From Oculatellaceae cyanobacterium bins.114 (GTDB lineage: Bacteria > Cyanobacteriota > Cyanobacteriia > Elainellales > Elainellaceae): DNA of 22,120 nt. The position numbers are program-made. Below are positions 6,001 through 12,000 of the stretch, piece after piece. Positions within the stretch are counted from its first letter, which is position 1. Each line of letters starts with the position of its first letter. Where the stretch lies: assembly GCA_033764315.1 (NCBI GenBank), contig JANRJA010000069.1, positions 1 through 22,120 of the forward strand, written 5' to 3'.

Positions 6001-9000
6001 GATCGCCACAGGCGACCTAAGCGTTTCTGTGCTCCATCAAAACTGGTGCAAGCAGCAGGAGTCATACATATCAGGGCGATCGCGCCAGCAATAATACCCC
6101 ATTGATGTTGAGGCAGCATAAAAGTGAAGGCATCTAGATTCCAACCCCAACTATGTTCTAGCATGTGCAGGGTGTGCACCAGAGACAACACAAACGCACC
6201 CACCCCCAAAACGCGGCGATAGTGTAGGGGGTGTGCCCAAAACCGACTGATCGGGCGGGCGATCAACGCTAACACCAGACAGAGCAAAGCTCCATGCCCG
6301 GTGTAATCGGTCATGGTATCCCCCGTTCGCAATAGGGTGAGGATGCCAATCAATAAGGTTATCCATCCGCCCAAACGAAATAATTGACTGCGGCGATCGC
6401 GGCTCATCAGCCCTGTAAAAACGCCCACACCTAACAAGGTAGGTGCAGTCCCCAAACCAAATGCCAGCATGGTTGCACCTCCCCACCAGGGGTTGCTAGT
6501 CTCAGCCGCTTTGATCTGTGCTGCATACAAAAAACCACAGGGCACCAAGCCCCACACCAGACCCAACAGGGCAGGAGTCCACCAGTGCGATCGCAGCGAT
6601 AGTTTTAACATCAACTGACTGAGGCGATGGTGCAGCCTGCCCTGAGCTAGAGGATGGGCGATCGGCAAGTGAGGTAACAGAGTTGGGCTAATCTGAGCCA
6701 AGCCAAACCAAATCAGCAATATGCCTGTGATGATGGCCATCAATCGTCTCAAATCACTGCCGATGCCCGCCATTTGACCCCCAGCTACCAAGACTGAACC
6801 GAGTGCGCCAATGCCAACCCCCACTAGGGCATAGCTCACGATTCGCCCCACATTGAGCAGTCCGTGAAAATAAAGCTGTCTCACCCAGGAGGGCTTTGAC
6901 TCATCGCCTTGCGACAGGGAAAAAGCCGCTGTGATGGGGCCACACATCCCCACACAGTGACCAAAACTTCCCACAAAACCAAGGGCTGCGATGAGTAACA
7001 GATCTAGCATGATCGCTTTGATAACAAGCACTTCATTTTAGCGTTGAAGCGCAGGAGAGAGCGTGAGGGAAAATAGGAAGGATCAAAGATGAAATGGTTT
7101 TTGCATGCAGGAGTGAGACAGGGTAGGGTGAAGCGACGTTAAGGAGCGAGTTTGATCTCTTGTTGAATGGGTAAACCTTTCAGCAAGTCTCGGTCTTCGC
7201 TGACATGTGGAAGTTTTAATTGAGCTTCAGCCATGCCCTGTTGCAACATCCGTTGACGAAGAATCGCAAAGCTGCCGGGTTCTAGAATGCGAAGGCGCGG
7301 CAGTGGAATCTGGTCTCGCCGCTTGATGCCATAAAAAGTATGAACTTCTTTTAAGGTGTCATCAAACAGTTGTAGAAATTTTTTGGGGTCTTGCAGCGTA
7401 TGACCAGAAGCCAGTTCTATATTTACTAGATAGGGTGCTGGAATGGATTCTTTAGATAGTGTGAGGCAAAATTCTTCTAGACCGATGTTTAGTGTTTGCT
7501 GTAAGATTTGCATCACTTGAATCGCATGAAACTCAGTTGTCTTTTCAGTGGAAGACGACATCACTCCACCTCGACGGTGTTGAAAGATAACGAGTGGCGT
7601 CTGTTCAAAAAAACCATCGATTTTAACAACATCACCTAAGTCATAGCGATAAAACCCTGTGTAGTTGCTCATCACAATGCGATAGCGATCGCCTGTCTGC
7701 ACTTCCCACGGGAGTAGTGTTTTGGGATATTCCACATCCCATTGATCTTCAGGGATAAATTCAAAAAAACCGCTGTCGATCGCCAAAATCGAACCATCTT
7801 TATTGAAGTCTCGATGTACCCCGATCACCCCTTCTGCACAGGCATAGGTGCCGCCAAAAATAGGAACATCGCCAAAATAGTCTGGAAATCGCTCAAAGTA
7901 GAAGTTTGACGTGCCGCCTCGGGCTGTGACGATGAAGGACAGATCAGTCCAGGCATCTTTAGGAACGAGCCGTCCCTGGGTTTTTAAAATGTGGCGCAAG
8001 TGTGCGGCTCGTTCTGGCAAGGCGTGCCACTGGCGTTCTAGTTTGAGCCGCAGATCTGGCTCTAGTTTTAACCAGTGTGCAATTTCTCCCGTTTCCAGGT
8101 CGTCAATCAAGCTGCTGGCATAATTCTCTAAATAGTCACACATCTGCACGGCTAAGACTGGAAACGTTGCCGCAATGATTCTGAGGTCGGCATCGCGCAA
8201 GGCAAACAAGAGACAAATGTAATACCGAGTTGCAGTATCGGAGATTTGAACCGCTTCAAATGGATAGGCAAAAATTTGGCGATAGGCCCTATCTAACCGC
8301 AGATCACTCGTGCTTCCAGGTGCAAAGGGGATGCCTCCTTTAGTGTGCCCCAACGGATTGACCGACAGGGGAAGCAACATTTTGCCCAAGGGACGCTGCT
8401 CTCGCCTTAATGCATCTGCTGCAAATCCCATAGCGATTCGGCTGGCTTGGGAGCTACATCGACGGGTTTGCTTGGTCACGGGAATCATCTTTTGAGGACC
8501 CGTTGAGCCACTGCTGAGATTGACGTAAACGAGCGGCTCTGCTGTCAAGATATTGGTTTCACCGTCAGCCATTCGCTTGGTGTAGGGATCGTAATAGCGA
8601 TAAGACTGGACTGGCAGGCGATCGCGAAATTGCTCAATGGTTTTGATCTCAGATAGGTAGTGTTGACGGCCAAATTCAGTGTTTTGATGAGCTTGCAAAA
8701 GCGATCGCAAAAACCGCTGCTGAACGTCTTCTATCCGTTTGGTGTGGCGAATAAATTTAGCCTTTGACTGCCGAGCTAGGGTAGCCAGAAGTGACAGAGC
8801 CAGGTTAGTCATGTATCGATGTTTGAGATGATGTTGGAACGACCTTATCAATTAAGAGAACTGTAAAGAAAACTGTAGTGCCGTGGCTATTTTTGCAAAA
8901 CCACATGGGGATACTGTTTTTCAATGCGCTCTGCCACGATCTCAGGCACAATCTCGTGGGGTGAAAAGACCACGTTTGGCTGGAGTTGCTGCAACGAGTA

Positions 9001-12000
9001 ATCTTGGTGCATTCTCTGAGAGCCTCCGCTGGTGATGTTGAGGAGAATGTGATCCTGTTTCTCAACGGTGCCACTGTTGACCGCTTGCATCAAGGAGGCG
9101 ATCGCCACACCCGCCGCAGGGCAAACATCAATGCCTTCGAGTTGCTCAAACAAGACTCTGGCGGCTGCCGACTCTTGATTGGATACAGAATACATTTCTC
9201 CGTGGGTGTCAACGAGTGCCTCGTAAACGCCTCCCGCAACAGCATAAGCGGGTTGTCGATTAGTCAACACTTGAGCAGAAACTTGACTAATTTGCTCTTT
9301 GGCGGTGCTTTCATCTATCCACGAAATCTCTGTGTTGCCCGCTTTCCAGGCATCTACCATTGGGCAAAAGAGTAAACTTTGAGACAGGTGAAGTTTCATT
9401 TTGCCAGTGCCAAATCGCCCATCTGCTAACAACCGTAGATTGGCTTCCCAGGCCGCAATCCCACCAGTGCCAGAGCCAACCGCTTGAAAATAGTGATCGG
9501 GGATTCGTCCTAGTGTCACCGCCGCGTCTAAAACGGTTAGTCCCATTCCGTCTCGTCGAGCCACATTTGTGACACCCCCCTCCGGGAAAAAGCCTTCCAT
9601 TTGGCTAATCAGGCGTGAAAGGGCGATCGCATCTGAGTAGTCACCGCCCTCGCCGACAGCCACCAAAAAAACGCTAGAGGGTAATTCTTCCATTAACCAG
9701 ATTGCAGATAAGCTGCTCTCTGGCACAACCAGACACAGTGGAATTTGTTCTGCGGAGCAAATATTAGCAAAGGCTCTACCCGCATTACCTGCTGAGGCAA
9801 TTACCAACGTGCGCTCATGGCCTTGAGGAACTCTTGCCAGCACAGTGGCCGCTTCTAGTTCTTTAAAGGAACAGCTTAAAAAATGAGCATCGCGCTCAGC
9901 CCAATAACCGTTGAAACTGATAAAGAGGTGGTCTAATCCAAGGTGATGGGCGAGCTTTTTACTGGTGTAGGTAATGGGCTTGCCTATAACGTTGAGCGAT
10001 CGCTCAACCGGGAGCCAATCGATAAACTGAAACAGACCGGGTAAATCACGATGAATCTCAAGTGTGTGATTGGCGTAAACGCTCTGCAAAAGAGAGGGAC
10101 GATGCTCTGCGCTACAGGTCAGACGAAAGGGGTCGGGGAGATATTCCGCTCCACATAAAACACAGCGAAGGACATATTTTGACTCGTGGAGTGGCTGTTG
10201 GTAGTTGCAAAGCATTTAGATTAAAAGTTGGGGGAGTAAAACCCTTTACAGATATGACGGGTTCATCAAAATGACAGTTTCCGGTGAAATTGAGATAAGA
10301 CTTTTTTTGCTGTAAAGGTCTTAAGAGAAACGGTCTTAGGAGCTGCACCTGGTAAAACCTACTCCGTAATACTTTTGCTCTAATACCTGCTCTAACACTT
10401 GCTCTAGTACTAGGCTTTTTTGGTGAAATCAGGAGTTGCTGAATTTCATTAATGATAGAAAACACAGGTAAAAAACTCGGAAAGATCAAGCATCCATTTG
10501 AGGTAGTTCTAAACGGCATTGTTCTTTAAGTTCTGCCTGGAAGTGTAGATTGGGAGACGTTGCCTCCTCCAAGATCAATGGGTTGAAACCTAGCACATAC
10601 CCACGGTCTCATCATCTATCTCCAGAGCGAACTGAGCGCGTTACTAGCATCTCAAAATTCTTTTTTATCCTTCATTCTTCATCCTTTTCTTTTTAGTGTC
10701 CCTCTGATTTTGTTTCACGCATCTCTCGCTCGGCTGTAAAGGCAAGTTGAGTGGAGCCAAGGGTCAGTTGTCCGGTGAGTTCTTTGACAGGTTCACCTGT
10801 GAGATTACCTTCTAGCGTTACGGGAATTGCAGCGTTTGAGGATGATTGGGCTTCAAGTTGGCAATCTGCCAGTTTTGTTGTGCCCGATAAAGTAATGGCC
10901 TGGTCTTTCCAGCGTCCCGCTAGAGATGGGTTTTCTTCGGTCAGAGTATTTGCTTGAGAGCTTGCCGTTGTTTCAGCCTCCACCAGAGTTAGTGTGCCGT
11001 TGATATAAACCCCAGACTGTTGAATCACGAGCATCAGGCGATCGCTTTCAGAGCATCCCGCTAACGGTTCACTGATCAGATAGTGACCATTGATATTGGG
11101 AGGGGCCTTTAAATGTGTCTCTCCATAGGCACTGGTAAACCGAAACAGAATAGTGACGGAGCCAATCATGGTTCCATAAAATAGCAGGGATTTGGGTTGA
11201 AAGTGGCTGCTCATGAGGGATAGGTAGAGTAAGGAAGGATGGAAGCGAGATGTGGTGTGACCTTGCTATAACGACGGGTGATCAAGAGTGAAGAGCGACA
11301 TCTTACAGCTAATTGATCGGTGTAATAACCTAGCGTTTGTCGCTCGATGCCCCATTCGCGAGAGGCACCCGCGATCGTTAGATCCACGCCTTCTGAAGCT
11401 TCGACTGCTGCTTGCAGAAAGTCACTGGATTCCAACACCGGAAAGGTAATGCGATCGCGCAGGTCGTTGGGCAGTTGCTGCATCACGCTACGAAATTCAT
11501 AGCTCAATTCGCTGGGTTGCTGCTCGTTCGAGGCGACTCGCAAAATTGTCAGATAACAGTTGGGTTTGCTGACCATAATGCGCAACGCTAGCTCTAACCC
11601 CAGGTCATTGTGAATTCCAGCAATGTAAGGAACAAGCAATTTTTCTAATTTTTCGGGGTGGCGATCGATAAAGACGGCAACATCGGTTTTAGCGGTGCTG
11701 AGGATCTGTCCCACCCGTCCTCCTAAGCGGTTATCACTAAACGCTGGACGGTGCCATCCTACGAGAATTAAATCGGTTTGATCAATATCGGCGATCGTAG
11801 CTGTCTCTCTAGCAACGTCGTTGCCAATCCTGACAATTGGCAGAATCAGCGACTGCACTGAGGGTGGCTCAAGCGTCTGGATTAATGACTGCAACTGAGC
11901 TTGTTGTTTGGCAATGATGCGTTCTGCCTCGGCAGGCATGCTCTCAAATACGTAATCTTCATCCAGTTGAATCAAGCTCAGGGGATGCACCACAGCTCTT

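Follow-up and report, generated by a model that had tools for sequence, protein, structure and literature searches.

The sulfolipid known from cyanobacteria is SQDG. Cysteate is the counterpart of Asp in which a sulfonate replaces the side-chain carboxylate, and its synthase in Methanosarcinales, reportedly described by Graham et al. in 2009, is said to serve coenzyme M. The part of PMC12971839 available to us names SQDG as the sole sulfolipid. The closest enzymatic precedent is OlsH of Singulisphaera acidiphila, a bacterial GH3 enzyme that, according to the available portion of PMC12493201, attaches fatty acids to the amine of a free amino acid.

Here we analyse a window of 22,120 nucleotides from Oculatellaceae cyanobacterium bins.114 in which a cysteate synthase gene adjoins a gene for a GH3-family acyl-acid amido synthetase. 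This two-gene cassette, which many filamentous cyanobacteria carry, is probably responsible for a sulfonate lipid that contains no phosphorus and is made by an undescribed route. The genome is 91% complete, a limit on the gene absences reported for it below.

Results

The cysteate synthase gene (8887..10215, minus strand) encodes a 442-residue PLP enzyme of fold type II. The protein matches TIGR03844 at 506.6 bits (cut-off 324.9), with the best threonine synthase model far below at 76.5 bits, and PDB entry 9k3c, for which our literature search turned up no paper, at 413 bits over residues 12-430. These scores bear out the initial annotation of a cysteate synthase. Its 120 best homologues are 53-100% identical, those that are named being cysteate synthases, and identity to the archaeal enzymes is 44-51%. 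Lys118 (codon 9862..9864, minus strand), which we take to be the PLP Schiff-base lysine by analogy with the threonine synthase family, lies in an SFKE motif that aligns with TCSFKE of 9k3c and is kept across homologues. At 119 columns that are 95% conserved in the 120 homologues the window synthase deviates at three, against a range of 0-9 among the others. Ala145 replaces the usual Thr of the SAGNT loop, where the nine closest homologues also have Ser or Ala, so this subclade may have shifted. Decay of the gene was not supported, the odd residues being mostly common to the closest homologues. As a member of this family the window protein is predicted to form L-cysteate from phosphoserine and sulfite; a search of the genome gave no canonical SerC above the cut-off.

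The GH3 gene (7139..8812, minus strand) lies directly downstream on the same strand. It most likely starts at ATG 8812, which agrees with the database record and gives 557 residues with domains PF03321, PF23571 and PF23572; the open frame reaches TTG 8851 (570 residues), and residue numbers here follow this longer frame. All the nucleotide motifs, with positions taken from the available parts of PMC12493201 and PMC12369477, are present: SSGSTGPQK at 113-121 (8489..8515, minus strand), TYACAE at 335-340 and GFYRYDLGD at 399-407, together with the hinge residue Lys437. An AlphaFold model (545 residues, pLDDT 90.2) predicts the GH3 fold, and its best Foldseek matches are all plant GH3 proteins, with TMq up to 0.88. 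The window GH3 had been called a duplicate of the other GH3 in the genome; a second copy does exist, on contig C77 at 59% identity, but its place on a separate branch of the tree marks it as an old paralog, not the product of a recent duplication.

Both genes are real and intact. Only 74 bp separate them (8813..8886, minus strand); no terminator-like site was found in this gap, and a scan for promoters and terminators gave nothing above chance. The cassette as a whole (7052..10692, strand unassigned, 3.64 kb) contains no other genes, neither an acyl-supplying one nor one for an O-acyltransferase, and has no counterpart at the syntenic position in G426, a genome of the same genus. There contig C12 aligns to window positions 5269-7051 and 10693-13432, with 67 bp between the two matches, and no synthase match was found in that genome. 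As 67 bp stand in place of the 3.64-kb pair, the pair has been gained or lost as a unit.

We surveyed 41 non-redundant cyanobacterial genomes that carry the synthase. A GH3 gene lies within three genes of it in 32: as its immediate same-strand neighbour in 27, divergently in one, and one or two genes off in four. Cultured carriers of the cassette include Phormidium tenue FACHB-886 and Lyngbya confervoides BDU141951. It is absent from the locus in the remaining nine, which include Moorena, Symploca and Richelia, so the pair is not fixed as had been supposed. The GH3 query matches nothing in three of these nine whole genomes, Moorena bouillonii among them. A CSAD-like (taurine-type) decarboxylase and methyltransferases accompany the synthase in three of the nine GH3-free loci and likewise in three of five cyanobacterial-type metagenome loci for the decarboxylase. 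Cyanobacterial cysteate synthase is found in at least three gene contexts. Among the best 120 GH3 homologues, 39 lie on a contig equal in length to that of a top-120 synthase homologue, all at ranks 1-79. Every one of the nine synthase-positive genomes of the family holds a further GH3, which marks the linked enzyme as usually an extra copy.

Variant loci elsewhere carry additional enzymes between or beside the synthase and GH3 genes: racemases that, among NCBIfam models, score highest to the one for cysteate racemase CuyB (at 128 and 124 bits, below its cut-off of 190), or a decarboxylase with cysteine sulfinic acid decarboxylase as its best PDB match, at 362 bits. These variants suggest that the GH3 acts on a free sulfonate amine. 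An OlsE-like fatty-acid hydroxylase lies upstream of the synthase in two linked loci (L037 and L100), and an OlsC-like hydroxylase downstream of the family-wide GH3.

The 25 directly linked GH3 proteins occupy one side of a branch with FastTree support of 98 (70 rows), and the same split has an SH-aLRT of 94 in a quick tree with one very long outgroup branch; none of these trees is reliably rooted. By sequence, the linked GH3 is a specialised paralog of the GH3 found across these cyanobacteria. Asp-binding positions of AtGH3.6, taken from the available part of PMC12369477, were mapped through an alignment of roughly 22% identity. Thr181 (8309..8311, minus strand), the equivalent of Thr176, which makes a water-mediated contact with the amino acid alpha-carboxyl, is present in 25/25 synthase-adjacent proteins, 3/41 unlinked ones and 0/4 from the racemase and decarboxylase variant loci. 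Position 120, within the first nucleotide motif and equivalent to Arg117, is Lys or Arg in 21 of the 25 linked proteins versus 6 of the 41 unlinked; the window GH3 itself carries Gln there, not Lys, and the homologue from G445 is one that has Lys120. For the second Asp-binding lysine, Lys160, the aligned residue is Asn165 in 19 of the 25. The pocket of the linked enzymes appears to match an acidic alpha-amino-acid acceptor. The linked and unlinked groups also differ in segments that align with the acyl pocket.

The genome has two alpha-oxoamine synthase matches, one in a biotin-type operon and one Spt-like gene. The Spt-like enzyme scores 137 bits to SPT and 100 bits to CFAT 28eh, whereas a genuine CFAT-like gene, found next to the synthase of a spirochaete, reaches 415 bits to CFAT. 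CFAT is crippled by Y115A and by K280A; the Spt-like enzyme has N-A-W at CFAT F113-G114-Y115 and Ile or Cys at Lys280. With both Tyr115 and Lys280 missing, its sequence identifies it as something other than CapB/CFAT. The gene is single-copy and its active-site segments do not differ between 20 genomes with the synthase and 12 without it, with no sign of adaptation to cysteate. All the GH3-linked synthase genomes (32/32) have the Spt-like gene; the earlier claim that every synthase genome does so fails in three of the nine that lack the GH3 link.

Discussion

The reading that we favour, at somewhat better than an even chance, is that cysteate synthase and GH3 together make N-acyl-L-cysteate, most likely a fatty-acyl sulfonate aminolipid with a putative acyl donor. 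The cassette would be a two-step head-group module. The GH3, whose ligase chemistry is shown by its motifs and fold, would adenylate a carboxylic acid with ATP and join it to the alpha-amine of cysteate as the presumed acceptor. By analogy with OlsH, the acid would most likely be a long-chain fatty acid and the product a phosphorus-free anionic sulfonate aminolipid, which OlsC- and OlsE-like hydroxylases may modify, the most tentative step of the scheme. Related loci would exchange the head group, an added racemase giving D-cysteate and an added CSAD-like decarboxylase giving taurine. The initial annotation had proposed N-acyl-cysteate made by a GH3 rather than by CapB. The clean indel, the separate GH3 branch, the acidic-acceptor pocket and an Spt-like enzyme distinct from CapB/CFAT speak for that proposal; the pairing is not universal, the synthase has at least three contexts and the window GH3 lacks the pocket Lys. 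Points that weigh against our preferred reading are the 9 of 41 synthase loci without GH3, Gln120, the mostly Asn equivalent of Lys160, the low identity (roughly 22%) of the alignment behind the pocket mapping, the SAGNT change in the synthase, the lack of an acyl-supplying or O-acyltransferase gene in the cassette, the missing canonical SerC, and the close tracking of the Spt-like gene by GH3 described next.

A possible but doubtful alternative is that the Spt-like enzyme, a GNAT and an SDR build a ceramide-type lipid and that the cassette GH3 adds cysteate to an acid derived from it. The Spt-like gene is present in 111 of 114 GH3 genomes and in all 32 with the synthase-GH3 pair, GH3 occurs in 3 of 249 genomes without it, and 28 of 100 genomes have a GH3 less than 10 kb away from it, although these counts include kin and are not independent. 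This close tracking is left unexplained by the free-fatty-acid model. Spt-like clusters also contain a synthase-racemase-GH3 set (G725) and a thrC-like gene-GH3 pair (G558). In several clusters the GNAT (putatively bCerS-like) and SDR (putatively CerR-like) come after the Spt-like gene, the three being adjacent in 5 of 10 read, all scoring under SPT cut-offs, and both occur in the window genome. With a GNAT present in these clusters as well as in the window genome, we reject the idea that GH3 replaces a missing ceramide N-acyltransferase. However, the obvious acid-making candidate, a Rieske oxygenase, does not track GH3: its ortholog (E<1e-100) occurs in 25/35 GH3-positive and 31/40 GH3-negative genomes, five further genomes being left out of the count, and is missing from the synthase-GH3 genomes G250 and G654. 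Its spread rejects it as the obligate maker of the GH3 acid, and we know of no ceramide acid from cyanobacteria. We likewise doubt the broader version, in which between about one quarter and one third of the cyanobacteria sampled would have an undescribed Spt-like/GNAT/SDR sphingolipid pathway with GH3 enzymes as interchangeable head-group modules, the cassette adding cysteate (elsewhere D-cysteate or taurine) to give a sulfonated sphingolipid along a path distinct from the capnine one.

It is unlikely that the acid which the GH3 couples with cysteate is short or aromatic, as it is for plant GH3 enzymes, and that the product is a signal, a detoxification product or a secreted metabolite. The structural neighbours are all plant hormone-conjugating enzymes, the OlsH model NF052613 scores just 93.9 bits against a cut-off of 620, and the acyl-pocket segments separate linked from unlinked enzymes; but the genes around members of the GH3 family encode lipid hydroxylases, DedA/VTT proteins, MFS and DevBCA-like transporters, and no conserved gene for a small acid lies beside the cassette. 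Synthase plus an Spt-family enzyme is the Bacteroidota route in the available part of PMC13692747, and no linked genome lacks the Spt-like gene. A capnine-type route, with that enzyme condensing cysteate with an acyl-thioester and GH3 or GNAT turning the sulfonated base into a sulfobacin-like lipid by N-acylation, is nevertheless quite unlikely, given the enzyme's higher score to SPT than to CFAT, its missing Tyr115 and Lys280 and its uniform active site; by its established mechanism, an alpha-oxoamine synthase would also be a poor match for the taurine and D-cysteate variants. Very improbable is a bystander GH3, with cysteate going to taurine, osmolyte or coenzyme M metabolism. The GH3-free loci and the decarboxylase-methyltransferase sets, in cyanobacterial and metagenome loci, favour this, but the window genome has no match to ComD (sulfopyruvate decarboxylase, TIGR03845), neither it nor G445 and G158 has a PF00282 decarboxylase, and the pair moves as one unit with its GH3 on a branch of its own.

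A literature search, outside which most subscription papers and supplements lay, found no report of cyanobacterial cysteate synthase or of the synthase-GH3 pair, and we regard the cassette as a variant of the OlsH-type aminolipid route for which no earlier report was found. If N-acyl-L-cysteate is indeed its product, a GH3-made sulfonate lipid beside SQDG would add a new way of making sulfonolipids and give the widespread bacterial GH3 family just the second assigned lipid role that we found. GH3-type enzymes would become candidates for further N-acylation steps that have no assigned enzyme, among them the first step of Roseobacter SAL and the ATP-dependent taurine transfer in cerilipin, and cyanobacterial mats and crusts would be sources of cysteate and taurine.

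Compared with known systems, the cassette shares with the OlsH-OlsI ornithine-lipid pathway (PMC12493201, in part) a GH3 with three nucleotide motifs, a predicted ATP-dependent N-acylation of a free amino acid, and OlsC- and OlsE-like hydroxylases near cyanobacterial GH3 genes. It differs in lacking OlsI and OlsG, its partner being cysteate synthase: no OlsI hydrolase adjoins the pair (a window hydrolase at 854-1750 scores 48.5, cut-off 385), and the genome has no PF13444 match for an OlsB-type acyltransferase. OlsH does not use glutamate, whereas the acceptor here is predicted to be acidic; the portion of that paper available makes no mention of cysteate. With CapA-CapB/CFAT-CapC of Bacteroidota (capnine, sulfobacin; PMC13692747 and PMC11211663, in part) it shares a cysteate synthase start and a predicted sulfonate lipid end, but the genome lacks CFAT, and N-acylated cysteate would keep the carboxylate, where CapABC decarboxylates cysteate into a long-chain base. 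The coenzyme M synthase of Methanosarcinales belongs to the same TIGR03844 family, over cut-off and 44-51% identical across archaeal loci, but sulfopyruvate decarboxylase is missing here and GH3 from the archaeal loci fetched. The Asp-conjugating plant group II enzymes AtGH3.5 and GH3.6 (PMC12369477, in part) have the same fold (TMq 0.87 to 9fxd) and kept equivalents of Thr176, Ser455 and mostly Arg117, at about 22% identity and with Asn mostly replacing Lys160. Roseobacter SAL (PMC11631085) is likewise an amide-linked lipid with a C3 aminosulfonate head, but that head is cysteinolic acid; the part of PMC11631085 available states that its N-acylating gene is unidentified and mentions neither cyanobacteria nor GH3.

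The cassette and its site

The pair comprises two intact genes on the minus strand, a 442-residue PLP enzyme (8887-10215) and, 74 bp downstream, a GH3-family protein (7139-8812). Their identity as a methanogen-type cysteate synthase followed by a GH3, proposed in the initial annotation, is borne out: the first scores 506.6 bits against TIGR03844 (cut-off 324.9), at most 76.5 bits against threonine synthase models, and 413 bits against PDB 9k3c, itself named cysteate synthase. A distant synthase relative (23% identity) lies on contig C195 of the same genome. The GH3, whose residue numbers follow a 570-residue frame, retains every one of the three nucleotide motifs as well as the hinge lysine, and the top fold matches to its AlphaFold model (545 of 557 residues, pLDDT 90.2) are plant GH3s without exception. 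A second GH3, on C77, shares 59% identity with it; its two neighbours encode a DAO-like FAD oxidoreductase and a hydroxylase resembling OlsC (266 of 450 bits; L034:4854-10343). The window also encodes a DsbD_2 and ferric-reductase-like membrane fusion protein (5667-7031), adjoining the cassette, and a DUF6885 protein (13706-14560).

The sole other genome of the genus, G426, is 100% complete and has no synthase match. Its flanks at the cassette site are syntenic and 67 bp apart; the window has 3.64 kb there, with only the two genes. Synthase and GH3 form one unit. The right edge of the cassette (10658-10701) contains 30-40 bp that recur at several other sites in G426, possibly a small repeat.

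Five conserved columns of the window synthase differ from 49 selected homologues, and it departs at only 3 of 119 columns conserved among its 120 closest homologues. Replacement of Thr145 by Ser or Ala is common to the nine nearest of these 120, and Leu282 to the eight nearest; Gly179 is common to the 12 top GH3 matches, so that both genes changed together in this lineage. The synthase looks functional but falls within a shifted subclade.

Linkage and gene contexts

The synthase occurs in 9 of 57 family, 27 of 401 class and 4 of 401 phylum genomes, overlapping sets that give 32 distinct genomes. A same-strand GH3 comes next in 27 of these (two loci end at contig ends, and one GH3, L098:4988-6668 in G450, is broken into four frames); it is divergent in one, and lies one or two genes away in four. 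A species-representative scan gave 48 synthase loci, 12 of them cyanobacterial or of that type; three repeat counted genomes, and none of the nine new loci contains a GH3. Their genomes hold an unlinked close GH3 homologue in five cases, only a distant one in one, and none in three. No GH3 was found in any of 62 metagenome synthase loci, five of them of cyanobacterial type, two of which seem to duplicate L035 and L046. The earlier view that the pair is fixed must thus be given up: linkage stands at 32 of 41 cyanobacterial genomes, in samples weighted to families near this genome and containing kin that are not independent. The synthase is split into two frames at L042:9998-11229, and a duplicated C-terminal fragment occurs in Moorena (L039:11410-11748).

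Three contexts were seen. GH3 directly adjoins the synthase in 28 genomes (type A). Type B, whose synthases form a separate branch, has the order synthase-racemase-(methyltransferase)-GH3 in G725 and G250 or synthase-DedA-GH3-decarboxylase in G248 and G592. The best NCBIfam match of the racemases, under cut-off, is the cysteate racemase CuyB, described in PMC11193023; the best PDB match of the decarboxylase is cysteine sulfinic acid decarboxylase (CSAD). Type C lacks GH3 at the locus, and a weakly supported node (86) places its synthases inside type A. The type C synthases of Moorena, Richelia and one Symploca accompany a CSAD-like decarboxylase together with a methyltransferase and a fusion of TauD to a methyltransferase, an arrangement from which we infer synthesis of taurine and methyl-taurine.

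The Richelia, Symploca and Moorena loci (L036, L038 and L039), like L229, L230 and L232, carry a synthase with a CSAD-like decarboxylase, several of the six also with methyltransferases or the TauD fusion, and likely represent a GH3-free taurine or N-methyltaurine pathway. Near the decarboxylase, an AMP-binding/ACP didomain follows the synthase at metagenome locus L232:7374-9407, and a cNMP-domain aminotransferase precedes it at L229:966-2453. A Binatia MAG (L043:9989-16955) has a cyanobacterial-type synthase (62%) beside an O-methyltransferase, class III aminotransferase, PAPS reductase and BCCT transporter, which suggests transfer and an osmolyte role.

A specialised GH3 branch

GH3 is present in 56 of 57 family genomes, where the eight top scores are synthase-linked copies and all nine synthase-positive genomes have a further match; of the 27 synthase genomes in the class sample, 20 show at least two matches and seven a single one. 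One branch sets the 25 full-length type A GH3s apart (support 98 in FastTree, 70 rows; 94 in a quick IQ-TREE). The linked GH3 is specialised. The unlinked GH3s nearest this branch (L302, L303 and L188) come from synthase-free genomes (G410, G454 and G453), and two of them are followed by DedA/VTT and TamB-like genes. A distant GH3 class (~30% identity) occurs at L162, L163, G427:C178, G435:C45 and G437:C62.

According to PMC12369477, Arg117, Lys160 and Ser455 of AtGH3.6 bind the side-chain carboxyl of aspartate, and Leu175 and, through water, Thr176 its alpha-carboxyl. On a GH3.5 alignment, taking GH3.5 and GH3.6 numbering as shared, these fall at positions 120, 165, 435, 180 and 181 of the window GH3. 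All 25 type A GH3s carry Thr181, as do none of the four of type B and 3 of the 41 unlinked ones; Lys or Arg occupies position 120 in 21 of 25 type A but only 6 of 41 unlinked proteins. Among the 120 top GH3 homologues, 39, the window's included, come from contigs equal in length to one with a synthase homologue; all 39 have Thr181 and 32 have Lys/Arg120. This pattern fits an acceptor that is an acidic L-alpha-amino acid, for which cysteate would qualify; it also fits that Thr181 is missing from the GH3s expected to use taurine or D-cysteate. Against this, the window GH3 itself carries Gln at position 120, Asn is the usual residue at 165, and the plant alignment is at ~22% identity.

Fates of cysteate and the sphingolipid alternative

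Neither ComD nor a group II decarboxylase was found in this 91%-complete genome, CFAT is absent, and racemase matches are weak (54 bits). No canonical SerC scores over cut-off, so phosphoserine supply is assumed.

The association of GH3 with the Spt-like gene, noted initially, holds in the class sample (Spt-like 152, GH3 114, both 111 of 401), and GH3 lies within 10 kb of it in 28 of the 100 genomes for which both coordinates were compared. Ten Spt-like clusters combine GH3, OlsC-like or JmjC hydroxylases, MFS, a Rieske oxygenase and the Spt-like gene, with a GNAT in five and, in four of them, an SDR; their order resembles Spt-bCerS-CerR as given in PMC11334938. The persistent company of GH3 with this cluster keeps alive, as a less likely reading, a role for the GH3 in a sphingolipid. 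The Spt-like enzyme itself is ruled out as CapB: it scores 100 bits against CFAT, where the CFAT-like neighbour of a spirochaete synthase reaches 415, and lacks equivalents of Tyr115 and Lys280, which CFAT requires (PMC13692747). Nor did it differ between 20 synthase-positive and 12 synthase-negative genomes. A GNAT is available for N-acylation, and the Rieske enzyme was rejected as an obligate maker of the GH3 acid, its distribution not tracking GH3.

In this genome the Spt-like enzyme, which has an unusual pocket (N-A-W, IGTI), lies with a Rieske oxygenase (L152:1537-4209, C69), and the GNAT and SDR, adjacent to it in other genomes, lie apart (C109:14426-16622); together they are a candidate ceramide-type pathway. 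A second threonine-synthase-like PLP gene lies directly upstream of GH3 inside the Spt-like cluster of G558 (L296:6565-9598) and tail-to-tail with one in G074 (L300:6593-9506); with NF006050 scores of 298 and 282 bits, under cut-off, these are possibly another head-group module. In a Spirochaetota MAG (L048:2180-4832), the gene directly after the synthase is truly CFAT-like, at 415 bits against 28eh, and the two represent a capnine pathway outside Bacteroidota.

Proposed route and known systems

Cysteate synthases form cysteate from phosphoserine and sulfite, and GH3 enzymes form an acyl-adenylate and then an amide. In the cassette, which is well supported as a functional unit, the synthase would make cysteate from the same substrates and the GH3 would adenylate an acyl group and join it to cysteate as an amide. 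Summed over the readings in which it is used directly, cysteate is the probable acceptor; the donor is, overall, slightly more likely than not a fatty acid, and the product would serve the membrane.

Our literature search, with subscription papers and supplements outside its scope, found no report of a synthase-GH3 pair or a cyanobacterial cysteate synthase; the one paper joining the two subjects cites the enzyme in its references only, and the cyanobacterial gene already bears the name in databases. The portions available of PMC12971839 and PMC11631085 list no lipid of this kind, and PMC8895605, which examined a Nostoc BioF, reports that sphingolipids were not found there. The cassette is neither the CapABC nor the coenzyme M pathway. 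Its closest parallel in action is the N-acylation of ornithine with fatty acids by OlsH (PMC12493201): the proposed GH3 step would work in the same way, although the window GH3 is not an OlsH, and the cassette would be a new version of the aminolipid route through GH3, one in which the head group is a sulfonate.
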